A DNA stretch of 64,000 nucleotides from Amoebophrya sp. A120. Taxonomy: Eukaryota; Protista; Dinoflagellata. A model generated the notes under the pieces. That model searched no databases and was not told the DNA's origin. It worked only from the letters and a program-made list of their open reading frames with translations. The translations under genes and the position numbers were made by a program. Below are positions 961 through 64,000 of the stretch, one piece after another (the first letter of the stretch is position 1; every line of letters starts with the position of its first letter). The DNA lies in assembly GCA_905178155.1 (NCBI GenBank), contig CAJINV010000006.1, forward strand, positions 1,799,876 to 1,863,875, given 5' to 3'.

Positions 961-3900
961 CTTTTCAGGATCTTCGTGGGTTCTCAGGGCGTCGTCTGTG
1001 GCCCGTCGTGCCGCCAGTAAACTTCGGAACAACAACTTTTCTACCCCAGCACAGCCCTTGCAGGATGAAAATAACAGCACCAGAGGACCTGCTCTTTCAC
1101 GACGACCACCGCATGATTTTTATCAGCCAATAAACCAACTACCAGGTCGTGGACCCCCGGTAGGAGGAGGAGGAGGAGCAGGAGGCGCTCATGCTCAACC
1201 CCCACACCACCACCTCCCGTCAGCGACTGCGTATGGCGCAGCGCCCGGGCGGCAACCGCGTGGTGGTGGACTGCAAGAACTGCAAGCGGCAGCAACAGCT
1301 TCTGGTGTAGGTTGCACTTCTACGAGTACAATAAGCGGTGGGCAGCATGTTGTGTTTTCCGCACTGCAGCAACCCCCGGCGCAAAAAGGCGCCTCTCTAT
1401 TCGGACCAAGTACACTTACACAAAGTACTAGAGGGCTACACCGGCACATGTTACCGCCGCCGCTGGTGCCGGCGGGGCAAGTGCAACCAGGCCTTCCTGG
1501 CGGTAACAGCACTAGCAGCACCGCGGAAGGAGCTAAAAAAAATTTCCAGGAAATTATACCTGGTGTAGTACTACAAGAACCCTCGTCAAGTTCTTTCCCT
1601 TTCTCTGGACCTTCGCAGATTAAACCCAGCTCTGCTTCTGCTGCTGTCGTGCAGCCAACTAGATTTGGAGGTAGTAGCGCCTCTAGTGGGGCTGGGTTTG
1701 GATCATTTGGTAATCATAATCCCGCTGTAAAAATAAAACAGCAGCCGTCAACGCCCGTCGCTCCATTCGGTGCCGCTTTTGGAGGACCTAGTGCAGCTGC
1801 TGCGCCGACGTCGTTCTTTGGGGGTTTCGGCAATTCAAGTAGAAATGCCACTGCTAGTGGAACAAACATAGCGGTGGGGAATGCGGCGGCGCCTTCCTTT
1901 GGCGCCGCAACACCGGGTATTAACAAGCAGGCAACTAGTTCAAGTGGAAGTGGTTTCATCTTGTCCGCACCACAAGCGCAACAGCAGTTCGGCAGCTTCG
2001 GTGCGACGACGACGAGCACTAACACTGGCCGCACCACCGGATTTGCATTTGGCAACACGAGGACAAACAACGCTTTTAATACCAACCAGCCGGCGCAGTT
2101 CAACCAGTCGACCTCGCAATTTTTCCAGTCGACCTCGCAATTCGGACCAGTGCAACAACCACAACTAGGAAAAAGCGGAAATAATGTTACAGTGAACAAC
2201 AAAAATAGCACCACAACACATCCAGCTGTTTCACACCTACTACAGCTTGGGGCCCCGATGAGGAACCTGTACGAGAAGAATGTTCGCACGGCTGAACAAG
2301 AAATAGCGGAGATGCTGGGCGACAAGTACGTGAATGAAAGCGAACTGATGAACCGCCTACAGGTCTCCACCATGCGGCTGCTCTGTCGCGAACTGAAACT
2401 GACCATGGGCAACAGCAAGAGAGAGTGCGCGCTCGCCTTATCGGGTAAGGTTTTGCGGAAACGGGTGAATGAACTCGCGCGGGACGGGTTCGGTGGGGGA
2501 GTGTCGGGTGGGGGATCGACGACCTTCTGGTGGGCGCGGGAAGTAGTCGGGATAGGAGGTGATGGTGCTCCTGACAAAAGCAGCACAGTAGGTGAGAGGA
2601 ACGACCACCAGGAAATAAATGCAGTGGATGCTAGTATTGGAGGTGAAGACCGTTTCAATATGTTTTCCAGATCACGAACTCTTGTTCCCTATCCTTCGTC
2701 ACCCGAGAGAACATCAAATAAAGCCCGGATGATGAGGAGATCCTACAGTCCGGAGATAGTGAAGTACCGAAACGAGTTCCACCAGAAGGTCACCAGCGGT
2801 TTCGACACGGGGCAAAAATTGCTAAAAGTCATCATGAAGTGGCTGGATACCAGCAAGGGCGTGCAACGCCCCCGGATCAAGCATCTGGGTTGTTGGACGC
2901 CAATGTATACAAATTACTGCCCCCCCACGGGAACAACTGGAGGAGGGGCTGCACCTACTACAGGTGGACCGATGCAGACACGCAGCTTTGATGTTCATCG
3001 CGGCGGCGACATTTTCGTCTGCGAGGGCACGAAAAAGCCGGGCATTCACGACGTGGTTGCGGGAATTACCGCGAACGGAGAATATCAAAAGGAAAAATCC
3101 CCCCTCCTCATATCAAAACGAAGTTTCTGATGCTGGATTTGCGTACACAAATCAGATTTGCTAGAGAGGACTGCAGGCTTAGGCTGAGCCTGAGTAGGGA
3201 GGTTTTGGGCTAGGCGTTGAGCATGGCAAACGTCAAGTCTGTGGGGCCAGCAGCATCACAAACCGCCTGCAGAATGCGGCGGAGCCTGTGGAGTTGCGTT
3301 CTTGCAAGACAGAGGCCATCTGTGGCCACAAATCAGTATTGCAAATTTTCTGAGACGTGCCTTTTCGTCATGGGGAGGCTTTTCCTTACGATAGAGAAAA
3401 GGTGGACTCCATTCCCTGGCTGTACGCCGAATGCACAACGTGCAGCGGGAAACAGGACAGCCTGCTGAGTAACTTTGTCAACTACAACATGCGCGGCGGG
3501 AAGTGGTTGGCGAAAACCGGGTTTGCACAGCTGGAAAGTTTAAAATCTCCGCGTTTACTGCTGCTCTTCCGGCCGCGGATATGCATTGCAAATATCCCTG
3601 GATGTCTGGAAGGATGGAACTTGATGTGATGCGTCTGGTGGATCACACAAATTTTATCTGTCTTGCGTGATCAACAATGAGGCCCTTTCCTGACCAGCAT
3701 GAGAGGGAATCTTTCATGCAGGACAGGCATGATAGAGACCTCGCAGATGAATCTGTCATGCTATGTCCTGCATTCCAGACCGTATGGGGCATGGAAAGTC
3801 TGCATGACAAGTTTGCACTCTTCCAGACATCCAGGGATATTTGCACTTAATAGCGGAGCGTCGCCGACAACTTCTGCTGCGAGTTGCTGATTGATACCGA

Positions 3901-6900
3901 TTATGAATTGCAAAATCACCGTACCTACTCGTAGTAATTCCATTTTATATATGCATTACAAATCTCTTTCTGAAGGTAAATCAGCATTACAAATTAAATT
4001 TGTAATGCTGGGCTAATTTGTAATGCAATTTATACGTAGAAGTACGATGGTGCTTTTGCAGTTCATACCGATTCGGAAGAAGGAAAGCGGTGGATGGAGT
4101 ATTTTCTTCTGGAAAAATTTCAGTTCTCAGAACAACAGCCAGAACTTGGCGTTGTACAGCAGCGGGGAACAGAAGTTGCACTTCCGCAGGAACAGCGCGG
4201 TCTTGTCTCCAATACAGACCTACCATCATCTGGCATAAGCGCAGCAGCAGCTATTGGAGCTCCGGATCATCTTCATGTGAACAAGACGTCCACTGGGACG
4301 AGCTCTTTCAAGGATTATCTGCGTGTGGTGCACAAGAATGTTGTTCCTCCGGCGACCACTTCGGCCAATCAAAGTCTGGCATCTGCTAGTTCAACATCCG
4401 CCCAATTCTTTTTCAAGCTCCAGGATTACGACCAGGTTTTGCGCATGCTGCAAGAGTTCGTTTCCGACAAGTGGCTCCAGAAATGGCGGTGGTGGAAGAT
4501 GAGACCGCAGAACGAAGTTGTTATACACCACGTTGACCAGGGGAGGGCTGCGCCTTCCGTAGAAGTACGACACCAACCCCATGCTGCTCAGCAGGGAGGG
4601 ACGGTGCTGTTAAACACTGGAGCTGTACCTCCATCCAGTGCAAACGCAATGCATCAGTTTCAGCCAAACTATAGCTATCCAAACAGTAACTCCGCGCCCC
4701 ATCGTCGATATAATCTTCATGCTGGTGCGGGTGCGCCACCGCATGTTGTTCACCAGAGCTATGAACGGCAAAAGTATCGTACTCGTATAAATGCATTACA
4801 AATTTCCTCAGCATGAGAAATAAAATTTATTGTCATGCGGATTTACCTTAAGGAAAAAATTTGCATAACTGTGATTACTACGAGTGCGATACTTTTGCAC
4901 AGGATAAGAGTGCAACCACCACAACAGCCTCGTCTGCGCAACCGGCCGCATCGTCCTCTTCGACTTTGAAGCAGATTCCCGCCCATGAGCTGTGGGACAG
5001 AATCTGGATCGACCCGATTCCCGCCTTGCACTTCGAATTGCTGAAGCGGGACACCAGTTTGTTTGATGCGAGCAACAGAAGCAGGGCCTCGTCGAGAGCC
5101 ACGAGTGTGCTGGAATTAGTGCTGAAATTTTGCAAAAAAGTCGCGCACTTGAGTTGTAGTGTTTCGGAAAACACAGACCCGGGTGAGGAGGACATGAATT
5201 TGGAGAAAGTGCAAGAAAATAAAGATGACGTTCTTGCACATCAAGTTCTACATCTCTCCTTCAAGGAAAAGCTGACAAGGGCCCGGGAGCAGTTCATTGA
5301 GAACCACCGACATCTCAGCCTCGGGACAGACACAAACGAGATGGAGAACAATGTGGCACTTTACCATGTATGCATTGCAAAGGTACCGTACTTGTCCCAA
5401 TTGCAAATATGCATTTACAAATCTTCTTCTTAAAGGAAAATCCGCATTACAAATTCAATCTGTAATGCTAAGTCAATTTGTGATGCAATTTATACTTAGT
5501 ACGATGTTTTTGCAATGCATACCATGACATTCTACTGGACATTGATTCCTATGTCCGACAGCTCTACGACTCAAAAATCTGGACCCGCCTGGCCCGCTAC
5601 CAGCGCGAGGGGGTGCTGAGGATGTTGAAGACCAACAACTGTCGTGCGATTTTGGCGGACGACTGCGGGCTGGGGAAGTCGGCGCAGGCGCTGGCGACAC
5701 TGGCGGCTTTGCCCGCGGCGGAGGCTTTTCCGTATCGAAAGGAAACATCCCCCGTCCCCATATCAAAACGAAATTTCTGATGCTGGATTTGTGTGCACAA
5801 ATCCGAGCTGTCTTGCTGGAGAGCACTGCAGGCCCATACTAAGTGTGAGTAGAGAGGTTTTGGCGGCCTAGGCGCTTAGCATCAAAAACCTCCGTGCTGT
5901 AGGCCCAACAGCATGACAAACCGCCTGCACAATGCGGCGGCTGTCTGTGGAGTTGTCTTCTTGCAAGACAGACACGATTTGTGACCACAAATCAGCATCA
6001 CAAAGTTCCACAAATATACCTTTTCAGTATGGGGAGGGGGGATTTTTCCTTTTGATATCCCGGTGTTGATCATCTGTCCCGCGAGCTGCAGGAACACCTG
6101 GGCTATCCTGTGCAGAAGTATCGTACTCATATTGCAATCATGCATCACAAATCTTTTTCTCAAGGCAAATCCCCATTACAAATTTCATTTCTCATGCTGG
6201 GGAAATTTGTAAATGCATTTATACGAGTGCGATACTTTATTTGCAATGCATATGGGCGCTGGAAATCGAGAAGTGGTTATCGCCCTTGTTGAATCCGCTG
6301 GAAGTGTTCTCGACGAGATCGGGCGCGTTTGAAATCTATCAAGTGCAATAAATATGTCTGGGTCTGGAAGATTGCAAGAGTTGTCATGCTAGTCTGGCAT
6401 GACTCTGCACTCTGTATTGCGTGGCCACAAACAGCCTCTCTCGCCTGTCATCTCATGCCGCAACGCAGTTTCTCATGCGAAATACGCAGCACAGAAGCAC
6501 GAGAAAACTTGTCATGCTTGGCTGCACATTACAATTCACCTATTGATCCCTGACTTGCATCACAAGTAGCCAGACCCAGGCATATTTGCAATGCATAAAA
6601 TCTTTGAGGAGTATCGGAAAGCGGAAAAAACCGCGAAAGAGCGCAACGACCCGGAGTATTTGAGCTCCAAGAAATTTGTCTGCATCACCTCGTTATCCTG
6701 TGCAAAATTATAGTACTCGTACTAATTGCGTTTATGCATTACAAATTTCTTTTTCAAGGTAAATCAGCATTACAAATAATGCTGGGCTAATTTGTAATGC
6801 AATTTGTGCTAGTACGATGCTTTTGCATTGCATACTCGTACCACCTTGCTTCCCGCTGCCAGGACCAGTTTACGCAACACAAATTTCATCATTTCCCCTG

Positions 6901-9900
6901 CAAGCACAAACTGCATCACAAATTTCACCAATTTATTTGGAGCGCATCTGTCACTTGTCATGCTGAACAGGATTGGAGAAAAATTTTGTCATGCGGGAAA
7001 CCGCATTTTTATGTGCAGTACGGGAAAGTTAAAAAATTTACGTGTGGATCCTTTTCCACCGGATCCCGTGGAAATTCGCGATCGTGGACGAGATTCACCA
7101 GTTTCTCTATGCATTGCAAACACGTCGGGGTTTGGAAAAGTGCAACTTGTCATGCTGCCTCTGGACTCGAAAAAAATCTGTATAACTGCACGAGCAGCAA
7201 CAGGAACCCAGTTCATGCTGTGCGGAGATGGCATTTCTAATGCGGGGTAGGCATCAAAAAGCCCTCAAAAGATCCGTAATGCTAGGACATGCATCACGGA
7301 CGTCATGGGCCAAGCGAAACATGTGAACCAGTACACGAAGGGTACCCAATACGCGAAGGGTACCTACAACATACGAAAGGACCAGAATACATACGAAAGG
7401 AGAGAGGAGCAGCGAAATCCGCTATACAAAAAAGCAGTTTTTGTATGTACTGCCGGACGCAGACAACGGAGTTGTATGGTCCAAGAAAAGCGAGTAAAAA
7501 GCTGGCCGTGAGTGTGGCAGAGCAGCAAATTGCTACTCAAAGCAGGCCACAATGCACCGCGCGCGAAAAAATCGCTCCGCGGAACAACAGAAGAGCGCAA
7601 AAGGGGGCTTGCGGAGAGCGCACTGCGCACAAGGAGCGACACAAGCGGAGAAAAGGGGCGCTAAACCAAAAAAACTAGCGGCGCGCGCGCGGTGAGGACC
7701 TATTGCGGATCGATATTTTGTTAGCAGGCGGTGGGGGCACGCTTGCAGGCGGCGCTTCGAAAACATACAAGGGCCGAGCTTGTTTCGTGTGCGCGCTTTG
7801 GTAGCTAGCAGAGTTATCTCGCTCCTTAGCACTCTTGCTGCAGAGTCTACTGAAAGTGGAGAAGACCGAGGTGTAGCTCATCTTTTTTCAATGTTATTCA
7901 CTGAGTGGCTGTTTTGTTTTGGCTACGCAGCCACGTATTGCAGTCGGACAAAACCAGGGCAATAAAAAACGAGGGCGCAGGGGCATCGTAGGACCAGTTG
8001 CGTACTACGGGGCCCCGAGTAGTTACTGGGGGCCCCGTACTTGACGGCCGGGCCAGTGCTGGAAGGGTCCGGCGGGACCAGAAGGGGCCAGACAAAATGG
8101 CCATTTTATATGCACTGGCGATTTGTATGTGGCGTTTGTTCTAGGACAGGAAGGGGCAGGGCCCTTCGTGTACTGGCATACAAATATATTATGGGGGTAT
8201 CAGTAATTACTGGTTCACATGCATGATAAACCAGCGCGCTTTTTCTTTTCCAGACCCAGACGCTTTTGCAATTCATATCCTTTGTCCGGAGCTGAAATCG
8301 AAGTACCGGAGAAACCAAGCGATCGAGGAGTGGAGAACGCAGAGTCGCGTGGCCCAGGTGGATCGCAACCGAAACGGGGGTGACATCTCGAATATCCGGA
8401 AGCACACGATGGAGCTATTAAAGCGCATGTCGAAGATCCTGCTGCTGTCAGGGACGCCCCTAGGCTCCAGTAGCAGCGTCTCTGCGATTTTTGGAATCGC
8501 GCAGCTGATCGGAATCCCCATGACCAATGAGGGTGCTGCACGTGTTGGCGCAAGTGCTTTGATGTCCTCCCCGACCTCGTTTTCAAAGGACCTTGTCCAA
8601 GTGGGACCAACGAGAATTCCAAACTTTTTCGACACCCTGAACGAGGAGCACTTCCTAAAACGCAACTGGGACCTGTGCGAGCACACGTGCGAACGAGCCG
8701 ACGAGCTGGCGTACCTGTTTCGAAATTACCTGCCCATTATCCGCCGCGAAAAGCACGAGGTGCAGGGCGAAATCGCACGGTTGCCGCCGTATTTTACCAA
8801 AGTATATCCAATGCAATATAGTACGTCTGGGTCTGGAAGGATGCGAGGTTTGTCATGTTCGTTCGGCACGACCGAAGAACTTGTGATGCGTGTCCAACTA
8901 GAGACCCTTTGTTTTGCTTGTCATCCAAAAAACGCAGCTTGTCATGCCGAAACTGCAACACTAAGAAAGCAGCGCAGATACTTCCCATGCTTGGCTGTGC
9001 ATTACAGAGCATTCACTATTCTGAACTCAGCATTACAAGTTTCCAGACCCAGGCATATTTTCTCGGAATAAAGTAATTCCGGTGAAAATTTCCAAGGAAG
9101 TGTTTGACTTCGTAAACGACTTACGCCCCGAGGTGGTGTTTCTAGAGGGAGAAGAGAGCAACTACAATACAGGGAACAACGCAGGAGATACAAACAAGAG
9201 TGCAGTTAATTCCGGAAGAGCAGCAGCACAAGCTGCAGTCGACAAGACAAATTTCGTTATCGCGACCGAGTATGAGCGTACCGGGTACATGAAAATCCGC
9301 GAGCTGTTTGCCCAGTACAAGAAAGACCCGTCCCATGGCACGGTTTCTGCGGGCGCCGCTGCAAACTCGGAGTCCTTCGCCTCAAGGGGTTTGTACGAGT
9401 GGCTCAAAAGCGACATTTTCGGGAAAGCGAGAAACCGCCGGAACAGTGTGGGAGAGACAGTGGAGGAGATCGGTCAAACGTTAGAAGATGACAGTGATCC
9501 GGAGGACCAGGACGCGGACCGTTTTGGTTTTCGCTCTCAACCTGAAGCAGCTGGGCGGCATGATACAACTGGCCAGAACACCAATACACGACAGCACGGA
9601 CCACACGGAGTAGAAAATAAATTCTCAAACCGGCACAAGAAATTCATTTTTTTCACGCGTCACCACCGGGTCACCGACTTTCTCGCACAAGTCTTGCTGG
9701 AGTTGCGACACTATGAACTGCAAAAGCCAATCGTGCGTAATAGTAATCGCATTACAAATTTTCTCAGCATTACAAATGGAACTTGTCATGCCGATTTACC
9801 TTGGGATGGAGATTTGTGACGCATAAATGCGATTACAACTACGAGTGCGGTACTACTTTCGCACAGGATAGTCACAAGCTCCGTATCGACGAGATCCGAC

Positions 9901-12900
9901 AGATTGACGGTAGAACGCCAGAGCAGGATCGCAAGGAGACGGTCGAGGAGTTATCAAATGCAAATATGTCGTCCTCTGGGTCTGCCGGGTTGCCGCAACT
10001 TGTGATGCGTATTTTGGATCGGACGAAAATCTGTCATGCGTGGACAGCAAAAATAACTTATGATCTGTCATGCGTGGGCAGCAATAATAATAGCTTACTT
10101 CTCGTACTCGTCACCAAAATCTGGAATTTCTTATGCGGGATTGTAGGCATTGGGGAAGCTCGTCAAGACCTGTGATGCTTTTGCTCGCATGCCAGAGCTT
10201 CTTGGTCACGCAAAAACAGCATGACAAAGTCAAAGTCCGCACTCTTCCAGACATCCAGGGATATTTGCTGTTGATAGGAATGGTTCGCGCACGAGGACTA
10301 CGCCGAGGAGACCCTGGCTCTGGTTTGCGGTCAGGAAGTATCGTAAGGAAAAATCCCTCCTCCCCATATCGAAAAGGAAATCTGTGATGGTGATTTGTGA
10401 CCACAAATCAGCTTTGTCTTGCGTGCAAGGCAAAGGGCACCCATTGGCGCATTGTACAGCGAGTCTATCCCGCGTTTTCGCCTATGTCAGACTTGTTTCG
10501 CATGCTCAGCTGCTAGCCGGATGCGTACCCAAATGGGCTTAGAATATGCCGACACGCTCTCGCTGCAATACAAAGTGCATTGGTGTACACAAATCCAGCA
10601 ACGCAAATTGTCTATTTGACTATGGGGTGGGGGCTTTTTTCACTTTGATAGGAAGCCATGGGGACGGGAGTCAACGGGCTGCAGATTTCTTCCTGTGCGA
10701 TTTTTGTGGAAATTCCGCTCTCCGCGGACCTATTTCGCCAGTGCTTCTCGCGCTTGCACCGGCATGGGCAGAAGGCGAAGCAGGTGGACATTTTCGTTCT
10801 CTCCGCGGAAATATCCTGTGCAAAAGCATCGTACTCGTACTAATCGCAGTCCTGCAAGACAAATTTCTTTTTCAAGCTAAATCATCATGACAAATTCCAT
10901 TTGTCACGCTGACCTAATTTGTATTGCAATACTACGAGTACGGGACTTTTGCAATTCATAGGAAAACTCGAGCAGTATCGACGGGAGCTGTGTCGGCGAC
11001 GGCATTGAGGACCGAACCCGCTGGGAAACGATTTTGGATCAGCAGGGCAAAAGCTCCGACTTTTTCTACAAATTCGACGACACTCTAGTGCCGGCGAGTC
11101 AGCATCTTGACGGGGGTGGGGGAGGTACGCAAATATTGAATGCGACAAGAAGACCCGACGATCAAGATCATCCTGGAGCTTCAACATTATGTGGGACGAC
11201 TGGATCAATGCTACATCCAGTGGTCCCAGCGGCACTACACCCAGGTGGCAGTGCCTCGATAACAACGACCTCCTCGCAATTCGTTGCGCAAAATAATAGC
11301 CTCCACCAACCCGCCCAGTTCCTCCCTTGTGGTCATCCACCAGCGACGGCCGTTGTTGCGGCACAATTCTACTCAGCTGCGCCGGGTCGTTCTGCTGTTT
11401 CCGCGCATCAAGGTGGGACGTCCAATCCGACCGCCCATCTCTCTGCCGCCGCCGAACAACCTTCTGCGGCCGCAAGGAGAACAAGCAAGAACTACACAAC
11501 TACTGCAAACGATAGCAGAAGCGGGGTTTCGAAAATCCAGGAGATGAAGCTGAAAATGGATTCCGCTCTGCGGATAGCCTCGAACGCGGAGAAAGCTGTC
11601 TACGAGAAGCAGGAGTTGAAGCTGCGAGATATGGGATTCTCAAACCTTACATTCTCAACTGTTTACATGTTTTATTTTTGTCATGCAAAATTACCATCAG
11701 ACAGCATCGAGATCGACGCGATCAATGAGTACTTCTACTTCGCATGACGAATAATTATTGGTTGAAGCGCCGAACATAGCATGGAGATTGATCTGAGCCA
11801 AATCTGTCGTGCAAGACGCGCAAGTAGTTTTGTTTGCAATGCACTTGTTTTGTTATTCCTGCATCTTCACAAATTTATGTAAGCACAAACAGTTGAGAAC
11901 GTAACGTCTGAGAACGCCATATGGGAGAGAAACCAACTGCGCAGTGGAGATCCTGCTTCGTCCGGCGACTTGCAGCGGCAAAAGTGGATCGACAAGTTGA
12001 ACTTCAACGAGGACAACTACCGATTCCTCGTGCACCCTCTGACAGAGCACTTGCACATGTTTGAAGTGCTGGCCCCAGAAGATCATGTTCTACTTGACGA
12101 AAAGAACGGAGCTCGTTCAGGGAGTGCGGTAGTGGGGAGCTACAACAAAGACGAGGAAGGAGGAGCAGCGTCTCCAAGCGAGGGACCACCAGCACGCGGG
12201 GACAATCATTTCATAGCTGCGACCACAACGTCGACATCATCCACTTCAACCACGAACCAGGTTTTGGAAACCATCGACCACAGCTTTTGTTTTGACAGCC
12301 AGGAATCCCGGGTGCTGCTCGATGTCGGTCAAGAAATATTAAGCCAAGAGCTCGTCGCTTCGCAACCTCCGCCGGGCGAGGTGGGTACAAAGCAGGTGGG
12401 CAGCGGTACTGCAGCTACTGCACCTGTTCTTTCCGCTGACACGACGACGGTTGGTAGCACGACCAAGGCACGTCACAGGAGAGTGACGAAGCGACTGCGG
12501 TTTATTCGGTACTTTTCGCAGGTTTCCAACGCGGATATCGGGGAAGCGAGGGTGCGGGCGGAGGTCGCGGAGGATAGAGATACCGGTCGTGTAGTGGCAC
12601 CATCGGCGGCTGGTGGTCGTGCAGATACTGGCGATGCGATCAACACTAGCAACGGGACAAATCAGGACGAACGAGATCATCTTCCGTCGTTGCAGATCCA
12701 GCAACAGACCGCCAAGAATGAATCCGATATCAGGAATATCCAAGAAAAAAACATTGTAGGTGTAACTTTTTTGGAGGAACAGCATTACAAATTTGTCTGG
12801 CATGACAGCAAAAACCTGTCATGCGCGGATAGTACGGCAAAACGCCCTTTAATGGACCCTATGATGCACGCCAAGCATGACAGACGCAATCATCTTGCGT

Positions 12901-18653: not shown

Positions 18654-19619
18654 AAACAAGTCCTGCAGCAGCTTCTTGTGAAACACGACCCAAGGGTTGC
18701 AGTTACAGTGCACGCGCTTCCCGAATTCCATGCAGTACTATCCCTCTGAGAAAATAAATGTTGACAGCACTACGACTTCATCCTTGGTGTATATTTGTTC
18801 AGTTGTTCTGTCCTTCTCCTTGCCCTATTGAAAAGAGTAGACACTATGCGGAAAGTCGGTTGGCAACTTCCTCTTGTCGTCCAAACATGAAATATTGTTA
18901 ATATGACTGCGAGAATTTTACTCGACGTCGTTGAGCAGTACAACTATGACTTCATCTGCATTCTCGGTTTCGCTGCTTCAGACCTGCTTTCCCCGACGTA
19001 TTTTCGTGGTCTGTCGGTCATCATCTTTTGGTTTACTTATTTGGCCCGCAAAATTGAGTGACGTACTATCATCGGTCGTATTTTTCTCTTCGTTCTTCTG
19101 CAGAGCAGTTTTTTCGTACTAGTGCAATTGTAATGCTCATCGGTGTTGGTCGTACCTTGTTGCTTATCGCGGCGCGAACTACCCGTGTATGATCGTATGT
19201 CTTCGTACAACCGGAACCGTGGTAATTATAGTCGTGACAACCTGTAGAACAAGAAAACAAGAAGCAGTAAAAACTTATCTCGTCGGTTCGACGTGCACGT
19301 TGCTCGTACATCAAGTACCTAGAACTACTGGCCGTTGCTCGTCCGGAGTCACAAGTTTCTTGTGACAACTTCCAGCACCAGCGTATGACGTGGAGCGCTG
19401 TATCTCATGCGTCTTTTTCCACAAGCAAACGAATTTGAATTTCTTACAACTCTCAGGAGCTTCAATCGCCAAGCTTTGAATAAACAAAGTTTTCGGTCGA
19501 CGACGCCCCTCTCCTACAACAACTTTTTAAACTCCTTTAAACAAGCATCGAAGAAACTTTTTCCGTTACAACCGCAAACAACTTAAAGAACTTTTTCAAA
19601 AACAAATCACAATTTCCCT

Positions 19620-20350
19620 ACTTACTTACTTCTAACAAAACGATATCAAAGACGACCCAGAACTGCCTACTAACGACCTCCCAGAATTCCTTACTAACGA
19701 CCCCCCAGAATTTTTGCTATAACATAACAAAGACCTCCCAGAAGTACTGCAACGAAACGACCAAGAATTTCTACAACTAAACGACCAACCCGATATCAAA
19801 TGCAAAAGTGTCTGGGTCGGGAAGAGTGGAACTTGTAATGCTGGTGTCTGCGGATAATTCTAAAAGAAAAGTATCTGTGTTGCATGAGCAGCGAGAGGAG
19901 TCCAGTTCTTGGCACGCGCTGAGGGCATTTCTCATGCGTGATAAGTATGAAGAAGCTTTCGAAAAATGTGTGATGCTAGCACCTGCATCACAGACCTCAC
20001 GGGGCATGCAAAAACTGCATGACAAATCTCGCAATCCCCCAGACCCAGACATAGTTGCAATTGATATCCCAAGTACTGCAACTAAACGAACAACCCGAAG
20101 CACTGTAACGAGAAGAACCAGAATCAAGTACGCATCAAGCCGCAAGAGCACTCGAGGAACGAAGCGCATTAAGAGGAGTTTAGGTTTACAACCAAGACGA
20201 AGAGGGAGAACCGCAAGAGGAGTTTACAACCGAGACGAACAAGAAGAGAACCACAGCAGCTGCAACATTTTGCAACCGAGACACGACAGGAAGGTGGAGG
20301 ACAAAAAAACAATATCAAGAAGAAGTAGGTGTTTTTCAACATCAGCCTAA
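19620..20350 (+). pseudogene. Decayed repeat-protein coding remnant
   Basis: 24-30 nt repeats translate as NDLPEFL/NDQEFLQL/NEQPEAL with in-frame TAA stops. Carries a family A element. Confidence 0.35.
19794..20066. mobile_element. Family A element in a decayed repeat-coding region
   Basis: TATCAAATGCAAAAGTGTCTGGGTC...CAGACCCAGACATAGTTGCAATTGATA, imperfect TSD CCCGA/TCCCA. Confidence 0.85.
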
Positions 20351-50900: not shown

Positions 50901-53900
50901 CCAGACATATTTGCATTTGATAATAAGCGAGCTGGAACAAAAAGTCGAGAATTTTGAGAAAACGGGGTCGCATGCCAGCAGTCGGGTGAGTGAATTATAT
51001 CCTGAGTAAAACCTACGTCCCCACCTCCCCAGAGCTGTGTTGCAAATCTGCATTTGCTCAGAACATCTGTCATGCTGGTCCACCGCATGTTGGCGGGCAT
51101 TTCCATTCTCCAATCGTGTTTGGCAATTTATTGTCATGCGCGAATCACGATAAGAGACCGGATTTGTGATGCGTCCGGGCTATTATACCTATGCAAGACT
51201 ATGTTACGTCCAGAAACTTGTCATGCGCCAGCGCCAAAACTTCAACTTGTGGATTTGTCTAGCAGATTTTTTTTTCCATCTTGATAGATTATGGGGAGGT
51301 GGGGACATTTTTACTCAGGATAAATTAGAAAACGAACTCAAGGAGAAAGAGGACGAGACAGAGGAGATCAAGCAGAAAGCTACGCAAGAAAAAAACTGTG
51401 TAAGTGTAAATCTGTGATGCAGAAAATGGAAAACAGTTTACACTTGTCATGCTTGACATGCATGATCGGCTCGCTTCGTAGGTGTTTTCCCTTCCTATCT
51501 GCGCATCACAAGTTTTTCCTGTCATGGCAGACAAACTTGTGATGCTGTTTTCCCAAAAGACAACACTAACACAGTTTTTTTCTTGCATAAAAGCGCGGGA
51601 GCGAATAGAAGAAATGTCCACCGCGAATGAGGAAATTAAGGTACTCTAGTACGTTGTGGTTTTTTTTTGTCATGCAGCACAAGCAGCGGGGCTAGCACGG
51701 AGTCATTCTTTACAGGATCACTTCTTTACCATGCAGAGTGACATTAGACACGACGGCGCTCAGCACACTGCCTTATCTAACAGGACATCTCCGCCTATTG
51801 TCACCTCGTGAATGCTGTTATGCTGCATGGTGTACCACGTAACAAAGATACCATACTGAAAGCACATGCACGACAAGGGCTGAGCCGCATGATTTCTTGT
51901 GTGGTGCAGAAAGATTTTTATCACGTGTAGACGCAACGTATTAAAACTACCCTGAAATTATAAACTACAGGCTAAAGCGCGGGAAGCCCTGGAGCGGAAA
52001 GAGCAGGAACTTGATGAGATGCGGGGAGAGAACGAAACCTTCAAACAGCGCGCAAAGGAAATGATAGAAAAATACAAGACGGAAATCGAGGAGTTAGAGA
52101 GCATATGAAGTGCAAAAGTAAAAGTATCGTTTACTACGTTGTATGAACTGCATTACAAATCAAGAGTAGCGCAACACATTGCCTTAGCATACCAGATTAG
52201 ATTTGCAGTGCGGATTCGCCTTAAGAAAGAGATTTGTAATGCAGAAACGCGATTAAAAATACTACGAGTTTACGATGCTTTTGCGTTGCATACAGCAAGC
52301 AGACCAACGTGGAAGAGATACAGGTATTTTATCCTGTGCAAAAGTGTCGTACTCGTGGTAATCGCAATCATGCATGCGGAATCCTAGCATGACGGCGCTC
52401 TAGACCGAGGCTAGTCCAATGCACCGGGCTAGGATGGGTCGCAGTGCCCTGGACGTTTGGCGCGGCCTAGCGTGGGGCAAATCGTTTTGCTTTGTTTTTC
52501 CTCATGTTTTCCTCATGCACTACCCTAGTCCGGGCCTTGCGCGAGTTTGCGAAGCTAATTTTTGACATGCTAGGCCCAAACGCTGCGGCGGACTCGCCTA
52601 GGCTAGGACAGTGACCCGAGGCCGCCTAGCCTAGGGCGTAGAGCGCTAGTTTTTGCTTCTGTCCTGTTGGCTTTTCGTGTGCCAGCTTCGTTCTTGGGGG
52701 CCTTTCGGCAGATGCGCCGGCCTTCGGCGTTGCTTTGTCTGGTTGACGTTCAGGGGCCGGACCGCGCAAACCCAGGGACGCCGCACAGCGGGGCGGCAGG
52801 CCAAGGAATGGCGTGCGGCATGTTCTTGGCGCGGCCGGGCCATTGGGAACGCCCAAGCAAGACCCGAGCGGGCCCGTGCCTCTTTTCTTGCCTGCGAGTG
52901 TGTGCGCGCGGCATCGGTGCGGTGGCCCTGTCCCCCGGCGGGCGCAGGTCTGCCCCTGCCGCGTGTTGCTTGTGTTTCTTTGACCGCCAGGCCCCCGCAC
53001 CAGGAGGCGCCCGCGCCTCCGACTGGGACCGTCGCCCGCGATGGCGCCGCCGAACTCGTCCCGCACGCAGCCCGCCGCGGCTGCTGTGAGTGTGTGGGCA
53101 CCCCCCTAAGGCCCCACGCACCGGCCGGCGCAGGGCGCGCGGCGTTGCTTGGCTGTGGTGGCTGCGTTGCGCGGTGACCCCTGATGTGGCTACCCTCCGC
53201 CCCCCCCCCCCCCCCCATAACAGCACCCACCAGCACAGGCGGGCGCCGCCTACCTTGGTGGCTGTGCGTGGTTGTGTAAAAGCATGGGCCCGCGCCGGGG
53301 GCGGGCGCTTCCCTTCGCACGTTGTGAGGCCTGCGGGGGTGCCCGCTGCTTGTTTCCCCTGCGCCCAAAGGGGGCCCCCAGCCTTGGTGCCCCGCGCAAT
53401 GTTGTGTTTGCTTGCGCGCCAGCACGTCGGCGCGCACTTTGTTCTTTTCCCCACGCCGGGCGCCCCAGTGTGATTAGATTCGGCTTCTCGCCTGAGCTAT
53501 GTGGCGTTCCGTCTGCGTCTGAAAGCAAGCGCGCGGCTTTTTTTCGCAAGCTTGCAGCGCAGCTCTGTTGTCGCGTTTCTTTTTCGCGCGCTTCGGTCCA
53601 TGGGCAGAGAAGCGCGCCGGCCCCCTCGTTCGTTGCTTGCTCATGCGTGACAATATTGCGCATCCTGATAGCCAAGCAGAAGTTTTTTGCCTTTGCTTTT
53701 TTATTTATTCGGTCCCATAGCGCTTGCTCTTGCTCTTTGACAACACAGCGACTCTGTTTCACGGCCATGACGTACACAAATACGCACTGCAAAACACAAA
53801 AAGCGCTGCAGTTTTGTGGCAGTCACCACCCTCGCGCAACTACCAGCGCCAGGCACTAGAGCAATTCCTGTTCTCTTTTGCGACTGCTTTTTGCTTCGGT

Positions 53901-56900
53901 TTTTCCCTCATCCGCTTGCGGGCCTAGCGTGTACTTATGTGTAAATGCCTAGGGTGGGTCCTGCGAGAGAGTTTGAAGCACTTGCATAATCCGTCATGCT
54001 CGGTCTTTTCTTTTGCAGTCTTGTATAAACATATTGAAATTCCCGTGCGAAGTGCGTGCTTCTCATGTTGCACACGCTAGGACAGCAATTTGCAAATTTT
54101 TACAACCATACTTTGTACCACTCTAGTCCATGACCCACCCTAGGACACTGCATGCATTACAAATCTCCATCTTAACCTAAATCCGCATTACAAATTCCAT
54201 TTTTCATGCTGAGGGAATTCGTCATGCGATTTATACTAGTACGTGTACGATGCTTTTGCATTTCATATGCGCGCCGTGGTCCAGAGCATGCCAACTCTTT
54301 ACCATAATCCGCATGAAAAATTTCTTCCATGATCTGTTTCTGCTGTAAATGCATCATGCCATGGGCATGACAAAGACGATAAAATTTTTTTGAATTTTTT
54401 CCACTTCATCAGGCCACGCTCCGACAGAAGCAGGTTCAGCTCGACGACATGGAGGCGAAAACTTTATCCACAGTAGTTGTATAAAACTCCTCCCGTACTG
54501 GTCACGTACAAAAAATGCTGGCTCTGCATGACAAAACACTTCATTTCCACATTCCTGATGTGGAGCATGACGAAGGTCATTTATCGAGTGGCAGTGAAAA
54601 AATCTGTGATGCATAGATATACGTGATGTTGTACGTGGTAAACAAATTTGTATTGCATAAACGACCCTGCAAGCCGACGAACTTCACAGCAAAGATGAGC
54701 AGATCGCAAAACTGCGGCACGAGAATCAATCGGAGCTGGAGCAACTGCGGTTATGCACTGCAAAAAATATGTCATCTGTGATGGAAGATTTGAATGACTG
54801 CATGATGCAACAAGAGCTTCTGGAAATGCGTGAATCAATAGGAGTGCACCTTAGCCTTTCATTTTCTGTCGCGCTGGATGCAGGTAGATTCGCTGGCTAA
54901 TTGAAAACATTATATGAATTCGGACACTCGCAACAAGGAAGCCGAAGATGAAATCTTGTTTTGCTGCCATGATGTAGTTTCTGTGCAAGAAACGGCCCTC
55001 CTGTCATTCAAGAACCACCATGACCAGACCCAGACATATTTTTTGCTTTCGATAGCGGTCGCAAATAAGTGAATCAGATAACCGCTTTAGCTATGACATC
55101 GCATACAGTTTCCCAACCACCGCACCTCCTCCTCGCACCAGAGGCTCGTCAGAAACATTTGTGAAGAAAGTGCAGGCCCTGCATGACAAACTGATTTCAT
55201 TTCGGGGCGATTGATGTAGTTTTGTTGGCTATTTGGTTTCCCTTTCCGTTTCAAAATAGTACTTATTCGGAACTACTGGGTCATGTTGTCATGCATGCAA
55301 GTGCTAGAAGATGAACCACAGGTAAAGATGAAGATAGAAACGAGGATGAAATCGTCATCTTCATTCTGCATTTTTACCAAGTTGAAGGAGGAGGCTACAA
55401 AGGAGGTACTGGGTTATTTGTGCACCTTCATACTCGCCTATCCAAGAAAAAAACTGTGTTAGTGTAACTTTCTTTGGCTGACAGCATCACAAGTTTGCTC
55501 TACATGACAGAGAAAACCTGTCACGCATGGCTTATAAGGGAAAACACAGCTGAAAAGAGGACTTCGTGGTTGTCTGGCATGACAGATGTAACTCTGTTGC
55601 ATGTTCTCCATTACAAAGTTACACTTACACAGTTTTTTTCTTGCATATCGCCAATCCCAAGCGAGAATCCGCGACTTGGAGTCTTTTATGCATTGCAAAA
55701 GTACTTCTATCGTATCAGTTGCACTTCTAGTGGTAATTGCATTACAAAGTTGCTCACCATCTTCACAAATGGAATCTGTCAGCGTCACAAATGGAATGGA
55801 ATTTGTCTTCATGATGATGTAGCTCCTTCAAGGAACTACCCTTCCCAAGGCTTGGGAAGAAGATTTGTAATGCATAGCTGCAATTAGTAGTACTCCCCGA
55901 GAGATCTGAAACGAGCACCGCCCGAGACTTTACTGGGTGAATATCTGAAACAGCTAAAAGATAACTCTTTTTGAATTTTTGCAGCGCGCGCAAGCTTGCG
56001 CTGCCGGGGGGCTTCGCCCTCCCCACGCTCGCGAAAGGTTTTGGACTTTACCCCGCCTCTTCGGCTTTTTCTTCCATTGCGTGCAGTGTAGCCTCGGCAG
56101 GCGATTCGTTAGTTTTCCCCGCCGCCGGCTCGCGTGCTGATGTGGGCGCCCTTGGGTTGTTTTCCGTTTTTTTTGTTGCTCGCGTGGCGCGGGTTTCCAT
56201 GTCTGAGCTAAGGCGAGCGGCTCCGCGGTGTTTTGTGCTCTATATATTTTGCCGGGGCTTTTTGTGCCTTTTTGCTATTCTATGGCAGCAGGAACATGAA
56301 CAACAGTCCGCCCCTGCAGTTGGCGCCCTTTTGTTCTTTTTCGTGTCGAAATTTTTGCCGCTGCTCTTTTTTTTTTTTCGTTAGTAAATATTGCCCCGCT
56401 AGCACATAGGATAGCCCGCGGCGCTTGTGCCTTTCCGTGCCTTTTGGTAGCGTGCCTGCCAGCGCAAACAACCGCGGGCCGTTTTCCGTGTTGCATTGGC
56501 TTTTGCCGTTTTTCTACTAGCTGCTCGAGCATGTTTGCCGCATTTTTGCACTGGCCCTCGCCGGTCTGTGCACTTCCCGGCCCCCTCCGCGTATTTTTGT
56601 GGGCCAAACCACGCTGCGCCGGTTGTCTGTGTTTTTCGCACTTTCCTTCCAGAGCTAGCGGCGCGACTGTTTCGCGTAAGTGCCCTGCATTAGCAACAAG
56701 CTAGGCTCTTCGTTGGTTTTCCATGTAATGTAATCCCGGAGGCCGGTTCGGCGTGTCAGCCAGCGGCCTGCTTCTTGGTGTGGGCATTTTTCTGATGTTT
56801 TTCGCTTTGCGCGCTGACCGCATGGCGTTTATCTTCATGCCCGGGCGCAGAGGAGTGACGCGGCAGCGTTTTGCGCTCCTTTTCTGCAAGTGTGCGGCTT

Positions 56901-59900
56901 TGTCTTTGTTATCCTTTTTGCGCTGCAGCGCCAGACCCGATTTACCAAGGAAGCACAAGAGGCGCCGCAGTTGCTAAGGTTCTGCGCTAAGGTTGGCGAC
57001 GTTGTCCATGTTCTGCCTTCGTCTTCCTTTTTTGGTGTCTTTTCGCTGCTTTTTTGCCGTACTTCGCTCATTTTGTTGCGTTTTTGTGTCTTTTCGAGCT
57101 ACGCGGAGCCTTTTCGGCGCATTTTCTTTGGGCCTAAAAACGAACAAACTGCCTGGGGATGATTATTCTCGCCGCCTTTTTGCCGTATTTCATTGGGTCA
57201 CCCTGCCGCGCTTTTGCGCCTTTTGAAACTGAAGGAATGCTCTTTGACACATTTCGGCCCTCAGAGCGGCCAAACTGTCTGGAATTGGCCTGGCGGGTGC
57301 GATACATAGCGCCACCGCTCTACGGGCTTGCTTCTGCAAAATCACGGGCGCGCGCCTTGTTGCGCTTTTGTGTCTTTTTGGAGAATTTGCAAAGTGTTGC
57401 ACTTTTTCGCCTATTTCGATGGCCTTGCGACGTTTTTGCCTTAGCTTGGGTCTTTTGGTACATTTGCACACTTTTCGAGCTAACTAAGTGAAGCCCATGG
57501 CCCACATGTGTCGCATTTGCGGCTTTTTGACTTAACAAGACCAGCTCTGCGCTGTTTTTCCTCGCATTTGGGTCCTTTTGCTGTGTTTTTGTGCTTTCCC
57601 ACGATCATTTTGCTGCGTTTTTGGGCCTTTTTTGCTGATTTTTGCGGAATTTGAGCACTTTCGACACATTTCGGGCCTCAAAAAGTCCGAGCCGTCTGCT
57701 TTTGGCTTTACCCGTGGGTCATTGCCAGCGAACGCGCTGCAGCGCTTTGCAAAAACACCGGCGCCCGCTTTGGTCTGTTCTTGGCTGGTCGTGGTTAGTG
57801 TGCAAATGGTCGCACTTTCTTGCTTATTTTGATGGTTTTCCGACGTTTTTGTCTTAGTTTGCGTTTTTTTGGGCGTATGTGCACTTTCCAGGCCCAACTA
57901 GGTGAAGCCCACGGCCCGAATGTTGCGCGTTTTTGGCTTTTTGGCTTAACAAGAGCAATTTTGCTGCAAAATAGGACTACTTAACTGCCATCAAAGAGGC
58001 GCGCTCTTTCTTTACAAAGAGTGTGACCTCGTTGCCATCGGCACGCGGGTCGCCGTGGTTTGGGTTGTTTTTCGTTGGTGTGCAAAGTGTTGCGCTTTTG
58101 TGTTTATTTCGATGAATTTGCGTCCTTTTCTTCTAAGTTTTCGCTTTTTTGCGCATCTGCGCAATTTTTAGGATTAACTAGGTGAAGCCATCGTGCGCAT
58201 TTTCGTCGTTTTTGTTCTTTTTGACTTAACAAGGCCACTTTTGCACTAAGATGATTTCACTTAGCTTCAAAAAGGTGCACTTTTACCTTAAGAAAATTGG
58301 CATTTTTTTTTGCATGTAATGCATGTTTGCAATACAAGTTAGAGACGATAGCGGTACTTTTGCAGTGGATATCTTTGGTGAAGATGCAACAGCAGAACCA
58401 GAAGAACGTATTCATGGATTTTGATAAGATGCGAGCAAGGGGTTAGTTTTGTTTGTCATGCAAGATTTCTCATGACGTACATGATTATTTCTCATGCGTG
58501 TATCTATGCCATCGCCATGTTGATGAGCTACATCAAAAAATTTCCGAATTGTACAGGAGCGCGAACAGGAGATTGAGGTGTCAAGGCTTCTCCACCTGTT
58601 GCTCGACGAATACTCCGGGGAGGTCATGCTCGGCGAGGAAAGAGGAACGCCCTTTAACCTGTGTAAAAGTACTACCGTACTACAACTCGTAGTACAACTT
58701 GTGGCAGTCCTGCATTACAAATCTTTGTCTGCAAGTAAAAAATCCGCATGACAAATCCCATAATTTCCCATTATGCTGAGGAAATTTGTAATGCAATTCC
58801 TGCTAGTACTGCGTGTACCACGATAGTACTTTTACAATCCATACCTTATCTGCAGCAGCTAGGCCGCATTATTGAAGAAACGGTGTCGATACACCAGAGA
58901 CAAGGTACGAAAATGCCTATGATGCGTTCCTATGCATGACAGGTTTGTGTTGTATTGGGTTCCTATGCATGACAGGTTTGTGTTGTATTGGGTTCCTATG
59001 CATGACAGGTTTGTGTTGTATTGGGTTCTACTCCTACATCAGAAATCACAAACAAAAATTATCATGAAAAATCCTCCAGTGATCGAAACGCGGCAAGTTT
59101 CCGGGGCTCGCGACCAACTCCGGCAGGAGAACCTGAAACTAACCTTATCCTGTGCAAAAGTTCAAATATCGATAAAACTGGATAATTCTAGGTCGAGATC
59201 GAGCTGCAGACCACTTCTAGGTCGACATGCATAGGCGCATACAACTTCTAGGTTACATACTTCATCTAGGTCGACGTCGTGTGGTTTTCTCCTACTAGGA
59301 GAAGTACCTGAAGTACTAGCATTGAATTTTTTATATAAATTCCATTGATAACTTATTCAATCATGCCGAGCAGGAATCAACAAAATTTGTCATGCAAAAA
59401 TTCTTTCACTAGTATCGTATTTACTTTTGCAGAGGATACAGGCGGGACGTGAATGATTTGCAGCGGGAGTTGGCGAATTCGGGGTTTTTCGCGACGGTGT
59501 CCAAGGTCGGCTATGAGAGCTCACAACTCCCCCTGTTCCCCCCGAGCTGTACCATCCGAAATGAGCAGCAATACAAACGCCACCACATGTGGAGCCTGTG
59601 CATGACAAAGTCATGCGCACCCTCGTGTAGAAGTACTGTTTGGGCCTGCTCCGGATGAATCTGTCATGCAAACAGTGCCACAGGGAAGCGAAGGAAGCAC
59701 TTGGATTTGATGGGGTGTAGTTGCATGACATCAAACCAGGGGGAGCAGGGGGAGTTGTGCACTCCCATATCGGCAACGCGGTGTTCTCGAGGTGTCCCGG
59801 GCGGGGAGGCGCTGGGGGACACAAAAAACAGTATCCTGTGCAAAAGTATCGCACGTAGCATAAATTGCATTACAAATTAGGTTAGCCTAACAGATGGACT

Positions 59901-60574: not shown

Positions 60575-60837
60575 TATCAAATGTAAAAATGTCTGGGTCT
60601 GGAAGATTCTGAGACTTGTCATGCATGTTTTGCATGACCAAGGATGTCTGTAATGCACGACCTAGCATCCCAGATTTTTAGAGGGCTTCCTGATGCCTAC
60701 TCCGCATGACAAACGCCCTTCCCGCTTAGCACAAATCAGACTCCTCTTGCTGGTCATGCAATACAGATTTTTTTTACCTTCCAAAGACAGCATCACAAGT
60801 TGCAACCTTCCAGACCCAGACACTTTTACATTTGATA
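60575..60837. mobile_element. Family A element outside any recognised CDS
   Basis: Intact TIRs and perfect TSD GCAGG; very similar to 41908-42169 and 63246-63507. Confidence 0.9.
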
Positions 60838-62391: not shown

Positions 62392-64000
62392 ATGAAGCGT
62401 TCCCGACAGAATGCGGGTCACGACGAGGACCAGGTCTCCTTCGTGAACAACGACACAGCTCCGGCCCAAAACGACGTCGACATGATCGATGTAAATTTCG
62501 AGTTATGCTGTGCAAAAGTATCGTACTCGTATAAATGCAGGTCTTGCATTACAAATTTCTTTGTCAAGGCAAATCAGCATTACAAATTTTATTTCTCATG
62601 CTGAGGAAATTTGTAATGCATTTATACAAGTATCGGATACTTTTGCAGTTCATACGAGTTCTACGAACCCTTCGAAACCGACTTCCACGGGGTCCGGCTA
62701 TGCATTGCAAAAGTATCGTACTCGTATAAATGCATTACAAATTTCCTCAGCATGAGAGATAAAATTTGTAATGCAGATTGAGCTTAAGAAAGGGATTTGT
62801 AATGCATGATTGCAATACGAGTACGATACTTTTGCACAGGATACCGGCAGCTTCTGAACAAATCCTTCGAGTTATTACAATGAAAAATGCCCCCTCCCCA
62901 TATCAAAAAGAAAATCTGTGATGCAGATTTGTGGTTACAAATCAGCTTGGTGTTGCTAGAAGGCAAAAGATGCGGACTGAAGTGCTGCCTAGCGTGGGAA
63001 GGCCGTGCTGCTCCAGCAGGACAGGAGGCAACTGGAAGTGGGAAACAGCATGACAGATTGCCTGCAATTCAGCCCGCAGCTGCGTCTACTCTTGCTGGCT
63101 TTCTAGCAATACAAGTCGAGTTGTGTACTCAAATACAGCATCACAAATTGCGTTTCCGATATGGGGTGGAGGCTTTTTTCCCTAGGATACGAGTGGTGCA
63201 AGACGGATCCCATTTTCGATTTGACGGAAGTGACGGACGTGTGCTTATCAACTGTAAAAATGTCTAGGTCTGGAAGATTGCCAGGTCTGTCATGCATATT
63301 TTGAATGACCCATGATGTCTGTGATGCATGCCCTAGCATCACAGATTTTTAGAGGACCTTTTGATGCCTCTACCGGATGAGAAACGCCCACTCCGCGTAG
63401 CACAAACTGAACTCCTCTTGCTGGTCATGCAATACAGATTTTTTTACCTTCCAAAGACAGCATCACAAGTTGCAACCTTCCAGACCCAGACATTTTTGCA
63501 TTCGATAATGCTGCAACCAGGGCAACATCGGAACGGTGTTGAAGACTACGGATCAACTATCAAACGAAAAAAGTTCGTCACGATCACGCGTGCGCACTTT
63601 TGCAATACAAAATTTTCTGGCATGCGTAAAAATGCATCACAGGCAAACTTCATAAGGGATTTCCCTAGACGAGTTTCTGCAAAGGACGGAAAAGCTCAAG
63701 CTGTGATGCTAAAAGAATTTGTAGTGCAAGTTCGTGACTGCGGCAAACTTTTTTCTCTCCATATCAACAGGCGGGCGCTGGCGAACAACAGATACAAGGT
63801 GGCGGCAAAACTGCTTCTGGCGAGCAAAACAACAATCTTTCCTCTTCCGCCGGCGCGGCCGCGGCTGGCGCGGCCGGGGGCAGGGGAGCAACGACCACGA
63901 CGCCACAGGAAACGGGTTTATTCGGCATCACGACTGCAGTGAATCTGAAGCAGTACAAGTCCTCATTCACCTATCAAACAAGAAAAAGTTCGTCGCGATC
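62392..64000 (+). CDS. BCP1: BCP1/BCCIP family protein, 5' part, runs off the window
   Basis: Reconstructed MIDVNFEFYEPFETDFHGVRQLLNKSF..FDLTEVTDVCCNQGNIGTVLKT..GLFGITTAVNLKQYK matches the BCCIP/Bcp1 N-terminal pattern (FEF..D(F/Y).G(I/V)..LL; L.DL...Q..IG.V.K; FG....NL). Elements: 62504-62654, 62699-62843, 62873-63189, 63246-63507, 63558-63763, 63972-end. Confidence 0.85.
62699..62843. mobile_element. TIR introner family B (representative of ~33 copies, mostly 140-170 bp)
   Basis: TIR TATGCATTGCAAAAGTATCGTACTCGTAT...ATACGAGTACGATACTTTTGCACAGGATA, TSD CCGGC. Other starts: 3902, 4760, 5369, 6104, 6694, 9712, 10812, 13364, 18477, 28394, 32571, 33231, 33743, 34234, 34858, 35622, 36592, 39392, 41596, 42775, 44996, 48171, 48856, 49720, 50160, 52104, 52330, 55687, 58655, 59146, 59832, 62504. 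Confidence 0.93.

Follow-up and report, generated by a model that had tools for sequence, protein, structure and literature searches.

A likely single cut register inside the 5-bp target duplication of transposon-like introns in Amoebophrya sp. A120

Introduction

How transposon-like insertions are taken out of coding transcripts is the question raised by a 64,000-nt stretch of Amoebophrya sp. A120 DNA (contig CAJINV010000006.1, positions 1,799,876–1,863,875; hereafter, the window). Its genes are interrupted by elements with TAT...ATA ends, terminal inverted repeats (TIRs) and 5-bp flanking repeats, which the initial annotation considered to be removed, each with exactly one target duplication, by one machine regardless of family. 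The elements are the published A120 introner system, 5-bp repeat included, and not a new system; the annotation's observation is confirmed, while its interpretation is supported in part. The mechanism that removes tens of thousands of non-GT–AG introns in Amoebophrya has been described as open since 2021 (PMC7789003), in part because the position of the cut is masked by the repeats. The new point is that the elements are likely cut in one register, with T+2/A+3/A−7 as a common signal.

Results

RNA-type contigs skip elements together with five nucleotides

Seven sequencing runs cover part of the window, and none is recorded as RNA. Runs X5, X6 and X7 come from one sample whose RNA type is guessed, and their contigs are consensus sequences in which minor registers are invisible. 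Placement of these contigs on 31500–43500 at 99% likeness yielded 29 joints, and the 15 displayed comprise five GT–AG introns and ten non-canonical joints. With a joint at a loose end and another at 18074–18315, twelve non-GT–AG joints were decoded, and all twelve equal the element plus 5 nt. The contig that holds ten of the twelve joints is free of GT–AG introns as well and is thereby recognizable as spliced RNA. When contigs were placed at 90% likeness together with the DNA run, copies from other loci dominated, and the 15 joints displayed are artefacts of such copies; raw RNA runs X8 and X9, with 9 and 4 reads aligned, were uninformative. The introns and elements concerned are as follows.

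37514–37799, 38502–38647, 39101–39330, 40013–40192 and 40325–40425, + strand: canonical GT–AG introns, all starting GTA
18078–18312, + strand: element, repeats GTTCT/GCTCC; 18074 joined to 18315 in the RNA-type contig; register 2–4
28394–31588, + strand: element of 3195 nt spanning an N gap, repeats ATTTT/CAATT; element+5 skip from the loose end; register 3–5
31642–31974, + strand: element, repeats TTGAT/TTGCG; 31979 is the first base of the downstream piece in all three runs; register 4
32571–32788, + strand: element, repeats CAGCC/CGACC; skip of 223 (218+5); register 3–5
35622–35783, + strand: element, repeats AGAAG/AGAAC; skip of 167; register 4 or less
35876–36140, + strand: element ending ACA, not ATA, perfect repeat; skip of 270
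36861–37031, + strand: element, repeats CGAAA/CGAAG; skip of 176; register 4 or less
37206–37433, + strand: element, repeats GAAGG/CAGGA; skip of 233; register 3–4
38747–39020, + strand: old element found through RNA alone, repeats GATAC/TTGAA (1/5 identical); skip of 279 (274+5); register 3–4
39392–39529, + strand: member of the 150-nt family with the repeats ACGAA/ACCAG; skip of 143; register 3–4; hairpin z −7.0

Excision from DNA in some life stage, resembling that of ciliate internal eliminated sequences (IESs), would produce RNA from edited templates, and the TA ends and transposon form of the elements suit such a history. Contigs also drop rare variants, and 1890 joints lie outside those displayed in the placement that included the DNA run. 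We nevertheless regard this explanation as very improbable. Ciliate-type TA IESs are removed from DNA and leave one TA behind; here, both TA ends are lost in the joined forms, and single-copy DNA contigs of run X1 pass through the elements without a gap (e.g., 16755–19822). The contig with most of the joined forms additionally lacks GT–AG introns, and the joints combine bases from both repeat copies, as described below.

The joint lies inside the duplication

The register k counts the bases that the joined product retains from the left repeat copy. Where the two copies differ, the contig shows which copy gave each base, and the eight informative joints intersect at register 3–4. This places the joint within the duplication, after base 3 or base 4. 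The element at 31642 fits only k = 4, as an indirect case whose joint row is not among the 15 of 29 displayed. We infer that register 4 applies, with N-TAT...ATA-NNNN as the likely intron. The reading frame does not fix the register, as all six registers give products of equal length. Joints at decayed repeats draw on both copies, so the mRNA is a chimera of the two; the proposed loss of one 5-bp duplication therefore holds for the length removed, but no whole copy is removed.

The element at 38747 keeps this geometry with one identical repeat base in five and no predicted end stem, indicating that removal can proceed without identical repeats or a strong end helix; the same element weakens the case for a pure hairpin ruler. 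Removal is anchored on the element ends and is independent of family, as the initial annotation had held, and it does not depend on repeat identity. The families are not independent of one another, since they share a TAT-N7-AAA end and a subterminal motif. The element at 32571 scores as opposite in orientation to that at 39392, with low alignment scores, a weak indication that the register follows the transcript and not the element.

Eighty-four elements share a fixed 5-bp duplication

Candidate ends were found by likeness to seed elements and paired by hand, with elements chosen by their TA(T) ends; the right ends at 7050 and 27681 are uncertain. Among 80 hand-paired elements, the 5-bp flanking repeats are perfect in 51 and match at 4/5 bases in 17, 3/5 in 8, 2/5 in 3 and 1/5 in 1, while a 4-bp repeat fits 1/80 and a 6-bp repeat 0/80. 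Four later additions, at 6871 (from the frame), 28394 and 38747 (from RNA) and 55687 (from its repeat), bring the catalogue to 84 elements, 52 of which have a perfect 5-bp repeat. A few more unpaired or degenerate ends lie beyond these, making the initial estimate of about 90 elements a fair one, and the five sites it quoted are exact (GAGAA 3083–3393, GCGGA 3580–3852, CCGAT 3902–4067, TGGGC 6104–6252 and AAGTA 8805–9070). A blind scan of the window for TAT..ATA spans of 100–400 nt flanked by a perfect 5-bp repeat returned 49 matches, compared with a mean of 1.7 and a maximum of 4 in 30 dinucleotide shuffles; it showed no excess for repeats of 3, 4, 6 or 7 bp.

Position counts over the 84 elements define an inverted repeat of TAT, seven nucleotides and AAA at both ends, and the median TIR identity is 15/20. 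BLAST grouping of 81 elements gave families of 25, 21, 6, 4, 3 and 2 members and 21 singletons. The initial annotation had given at least eight TIR families; six multi-copy groups are found here. The two largest are inserted in both orientations (13/12 and 11/10). The elements have very high contig depth in the DNA run, and their TIRs, fixed 5-bp target duplication, lack of coding capacity and presence in both orientations agree with TIR/miniature inverted-repeat transposable elements (MITEs). Mismatches between repeat copies are fewest at base 4 (5, against 13, 13, 10 and 14 at the other bases), a difference that is not significant after correction. In register 4, base 4 of the repeat closes the exon in one copy and the intron in the other. 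Representative elements outside the RNA-supported set are listed here.

3083–3393, no strand assigned: element of the family of about 310 nt, perfect repeat GAGAA
7108–8277, no strand assigned: element of 1170 nt with a GC-rich repeated insert inside; DNA contig depth above single copy
19794–20066, no strand assigned: element of the 260-nt family that lies in none of the rebuilt frames
55687–58371, no strand assigned: element of 2685 nt, perfect TCTTT repeat
60575–60837, no strand assigned: element, repeat GCAGG; the sole GT..AG reading among the 84 in register 4

Shared boundary signals and a possible relaxed spliceosome

In any register, at most 1 of the 84 elements can be read as GT/GC..AG, so GT/GC–AG termini are not a feature of these introns. 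Register 4 gives NT–NN terminal dinucleotides, of 44 kinds across the 84 elements, one element reading GT–AG. The +1 base is free (A23 C22 G17 T22), as is the 3′ end. T+2 and A+3, corresponding to a U+2/purine+3 donor, are present in 84/84 elements in this register, partly through selection, and A occupies −7 in 84/84. The earlier claim that no shared boundary exists is accordingly correct for GT/AG, but T+2, A+3 and A−7 are shared in register 4. All five canonical donors in the same contig start with GTA, so the two intron types would share T+2/A+3. The eight end variants separate by transcript polarity: the four left-hand ones are at +4 and the four right-hand ones at −5/−6, and no variant reverses this pattern (naive p about 0.004).

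Four of the five canonical introns in 37514–40425 have A/C-rich acceptors (AAACAG, CCCAG) without a pyrimidine tract. An apparent GT–AG intron, recognized by eye at 52324–54411, has its donor 6 nt before a TAT end and nested elements inside; it is possibly an intermediate between the two intron types. A U12-type intron was rejected because the +1 base and the 3′ end are free and minor small nuclear RNAs (snRNAs) are reported absent in Amoebophrya (PMC7789003). In the list of 80 hand-paired elements, some start with TATCCT and none with the TATCCTT of a U12 donor.

These signals lead us to favor, with restrained confidence, removal of the element introns from pre-mRNA by a relaxed U2-type spliceosome. 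Such a machine would read U+2/A+3 as a donor with a free first base and use A−7 as a putative branch point, the 3′ splice site being set by a fixed distance instead of an AG; pairing of the ends would help removal without being required. A more specific version, to which we give somewhat less than an even chance, is that the spliceosome dropped G+1 and the AG acceptor, that x-U-A is the donor, and that ligation occurs a fixed 7 nt after a transposon-supplied branch A. One symmetric TAT...ATA terminus could then act as a donor in one direction and as branch plus ruler in the other. Because one flanking base on one side and four on the other leave with the element, excision of any insertion would recover the original sequence whichever way it was oriented; if the more specific version is true, every insertion with a 5-bp duplication would be a seamless intron both ways. 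In A120, U2, U4, U5 and U6 are reported, only 6 of 89 spliceosomal proteins are missing and no U1 snRNA was detected (PMC7789003), and a free +1 base is consistent with that failure to detect U1 while the other four are present. In Table S4 of the same report, the nine predominant A120 sites are all NT- and the nine A25 sites all TT-, and the A25 repeat starts with TTA (PMC7789003).

Structure at the ends bears on a different enzyme. TIR positions 4–7 pair poorly (0.35–0.64), while positions 8–12 match more within than between elements (0.87 vs 0.44 at position 10). Upon folding, 66 of 81 elements have z < −3 and nine lie above −2 (six shuffles each); the element at 38747 has z +0.55, and the terminal pair probability is ≤0.01 in 3 of the 12 RNA-supported elements folded. 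A dedicated endonuclease and ligase might read paired or protein-bridged ends and cut 1 nt before and 4 nt after the element, like the euglenid system. The within-element TIR matching at positions 8–12 is in keeping with such an enzyme, as are the missing AG and the U1 snRNA undetected in A120 (PMC7789003). The geometry is fixed in the same way as in the Euglena-type code, N3-CDG...CH'G-N5-6, in which the 3′ spacer is 2–3 nt longer than the 5′ spacer (PMC12501133), with spacers of 1 and 4 here, and euglenid introns are reported to be released as circles without lariats (PMC11282704). A nuclease and ligase alone would leave unexplained why T+2/A+3 line up with the GTA donors, both here and in the published site tables of the two strains, as well as the polarity of the end variants, and the stemless element at 38747 also speaks against it. 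We consider this mechanism rather unlikely.

Several points weigh against the relaxed U2-type spliceosome and the register on which it is built. The absence of AG and the free +1 and −1 bases are disfavored by canonical second-step chemistry. The −7 context fits yUnAy poorly, with U at −9 in 36/84, and the strong folds in 66/81 elements (z < −3) would also suit a structure-reading enzyme. As the elements were picked by their TA(T) ends, the invariance there is partly selection. Register 4 is preferred over 3 through one indirect case; all the RNA comes from one sample of guessed type in consensus contigs, with 14 of the 29 joints outside those displayed; and all genes tested are read from the + strand. 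The site placements of Table S4 were produced by an aligner, with a possible bias, and the text of that report describes no clear splice-site signature (PMC7789003). The assignment of A−7 as branch point, a lariat product and dependence on small nuclear ribonucleoproteins are putative features of the model.

A periodic subterminal motif and the spread of the elements

Of 81 short elements, 80 carry a subterminal motif, GCA[TA][GTC]ACA (GCAWBACA), which is found in both polarities, with 256 copies in elements vs 9 in shuffles; the 9.5-kb coding sequence of gene 1 (described below) has 2 copies and the five canonical introns none. Gaps between motifs of the same polarity fall at 29–33 nt in 48 of 116 cases, a spacing of about 31 bp, and also at 93–97. 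No mention of the motif was found in the accessible portions of the published descriptions of these elements. A spliceosome might be guided mainly by the hairpin or by proteins on GCAWBACA and use an internal branch point, in which case A−7 would be just a base of the transposon end. The near-universal presence of the motif in elements, its absence from canonical introns and its U-N-A-C core fit this idea, which we consider improbable, because the distance of the motif from the 3′ end is not fixed and the 29–33-nt gaps, about three DNA turns, suit a DNA-binding role.

The shared motif and its spacing suggest one mobilizing protein. Together with the fixed 5-bp duplication and insertion in both orientations, the helically spaced motifs suggest one DNA transposase or integrase, so that spread would have been DNA-based, through an enzyme with a 5-bp stagger that binds the motif. 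In the window, no transposase-like Pfam match reached the cut-off in 16 open reading frames (ORFs) of long inserts and intergenic stretches, nor in a 645-codon ORF at 22780; three ORFs of the element 55687–58371 had no Pfam match at the cut-off, and Rfam had no match in the window. For A120 as a whole, Farhat et al. found no transposase (PMC7789003), and TIR-flanked A120 introners with homology to long terminal repeat elements are described by Gozashti et al. 2025 (PMC12130899).

GC-rich or strand-skewed stretches occur at 7400–8200, 21850–24850, 28600–31450, 52400–53900, 55950–58300 and 1–1000. Several are nested in long TAT-ended elements and are possibly larger autonomous or nested elements; 7176–8200 has raised DNA contig depth. 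An uninterrupted GC-rich ORF at 23758–24717 (+), of about 320 codons from ATG, contains no elements and has no Pfam match; it lies within the 645-codon stop-free frame and may be cargo of a larger mobile element. Degenerate AAGATT-type repeats occupy 30090–30530 and a 10-bp tandem array 31270–31400; another tandem array, of 33 bp at 58920–59025, includes the subterminal motif.

Reading frames of the genes carrying the elements

Removal of element plus 5 nt opens reading frames in the following genes.

1448–18653, + strand: gene 1, SNF2 helicase with C-terminal HNH (ZRANB3/SMARCAL1-like), 29 elements inside
6871–7050, no strand assigned: degenerate element, the 29th in gene 1, starting TAC and with the repeats CAGTT/CTTTT; its right end is deduced from the frame
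28356–41048, + strand: gene 2, open frame of 1412 aa across 19 elements and five GT–AG introns; the 5′ part of the gene lies upstream of this frame
44919–51640, + strand: gene 4, judged coiled-coil-like by eye; two frames, with 153 and 839 codons
62392–64000, + strand: gene 6, frame open over five elements, a sixth starting at 63972

Removal at the 29 sites of gene 1 opens a single frame, as the initial annotation stated, but its length is 3377 codons from stop to stop, with 3155 aa from the first ATG at 1448, and no ATG gives the 3323 codons reported. Shifting any single removal among the first 28 sites to +3, +4 or +6 truncates the frame; the 29th removal site sits at the stop codon and is uninformative, and by reading frame alone +5 is indistinguishable from +2 or +8, a distinction that the RNA-type contigs make. 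One exon matches SNF2-rel_dom at E 2.4e-4, weaker than the curated cut-off. The one relative found, protein P0001, has SNF2 and a weak HNH match and is colinear with gene 1 at 31–35% identity in two long blocks, which contain 23 of the 29 junctions. P0001 lacks the inserts at the protein level. Junctions in conserved helicase and HNH motifs (e.g., 6104, 6694, 6871, 8805, 15804 and 16182) are gap-free against it, while several in divergent stretches show gaps. At the 6871 site, P0001 has Q, which matches the codon of the left repeat copy. The 5′ part of gene 1 (1448–2660) is low-complexity and FG-rich with no Pfam match, and its true start is uncertain. Between 4760 and 18312, silent third-codon changes are found at 7 of 13 mismatched repeat positions (6 of 8 within 4760–10276); in these small numbers, both copies could at times have been used or constrained.

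Gene 2 is covered by transcript-type contigs of 3.5–4.3 kb. In gene 4, the 153-codon frame is open across 3 elements and the 839-codon frame across 12. The frame of gene 6 was rebuilt by the same removal, as first described, but the name BCP1 is unconfirmed: we take the gene to be BCP1/BCCIP-like from a motif match, and searches of its single exons returned no match in Pfam (two exons) or PDB (one exon), the spliced protein not having been searched. Another gene with five elements, at 41440–43480, is covered mainly by run X6.

Discussion

A fixed register would convert seemingly random boundaries into one rule, N-TAT...ATA-NNNN, by which gene models could be redrawn consistently, and would supply exact coordinates with which a loosened spliceosome could be told apart from a new nuclease–ligase. 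The same rule would also account for so dense a load of transposons within coding regions.

Within the published A120 system, the inverted repeats are described as beginning with TAT, followed by seven less conserved bases and a run of A at least three long, and the direct repeats as 3–5 nt in length; the legend of Fig. S19 gives 5-bp direct repeats for A120, and that of Fig. 3 describes splice sites as variable relative to the hairpin, with an unknown border (PMC7789003). The elements of the window agree with this description in end signature and family repetition, in a direct repeat over the boundary (5 bp, perfect in 52/84, with the joint inside), and in being non-GT–AG and missing from RNA in 12/12 decoded joints, with the run type guessed. 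TAT ends, many families, RNA-supported removal and mixture with GT–AG introns are common to both (PMC7789003, PMC12130899). There is no difference in kind; one repeat length, one register, the T+2/A+3/A−7 signal and the periodic motif are added here. The commonest A120 repeat is reported to have four of its bases upstream of the 5′ end (PMC7789003), a sentence that may already reflect register 4, and the target-site duplication calls range from 2 to 5 among 19 of 58 A120 supplementary rows (PMC12130899). The literature searched, mostly open-access and without the figures of Farhat et al., contained no determination of the register and no lariat test in Amoebophrya.

The nonconventional introns of euglenids resemble these elements in their MITE-like origin, junction-blurring direct repeats and fixed spacers to a terminal stem, with the 3′ spacer longer (PMC12501133, PMC11282704). 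They differ in having CAG/CTG, spacers of 3 and 5–6 and reported circles, as opposed to TAT/ATA with 1 and 4; the elements here do not follow N3-CDG...CH'G-N5-6, and the geometry is analogous only. Fritillaria borealis likewise has transposon-derived non-GT/AG introns on a genome scale (PMC13326754), which are attributed to a modified U2 spliceosome (PMC13326754, PMC11282704). In contrast to the free, target-site-derived terminal bases observed here, AG–AC/AG–AT termini are preferred in that species and U1 is retained (PMC13326754). The U12-type TIR introns of Physarum share TAT at +2..+4, inverted ends and a near-fixed distance from branch motif to 3′ site; they differ in the RTATCYTT donor, an AG/AC end, a 2-bp TA target and use of the minor spliceosome (10.1101/2020.10.12.336362), a machine that Amoebophrya is reported to lack (PMC7789003).

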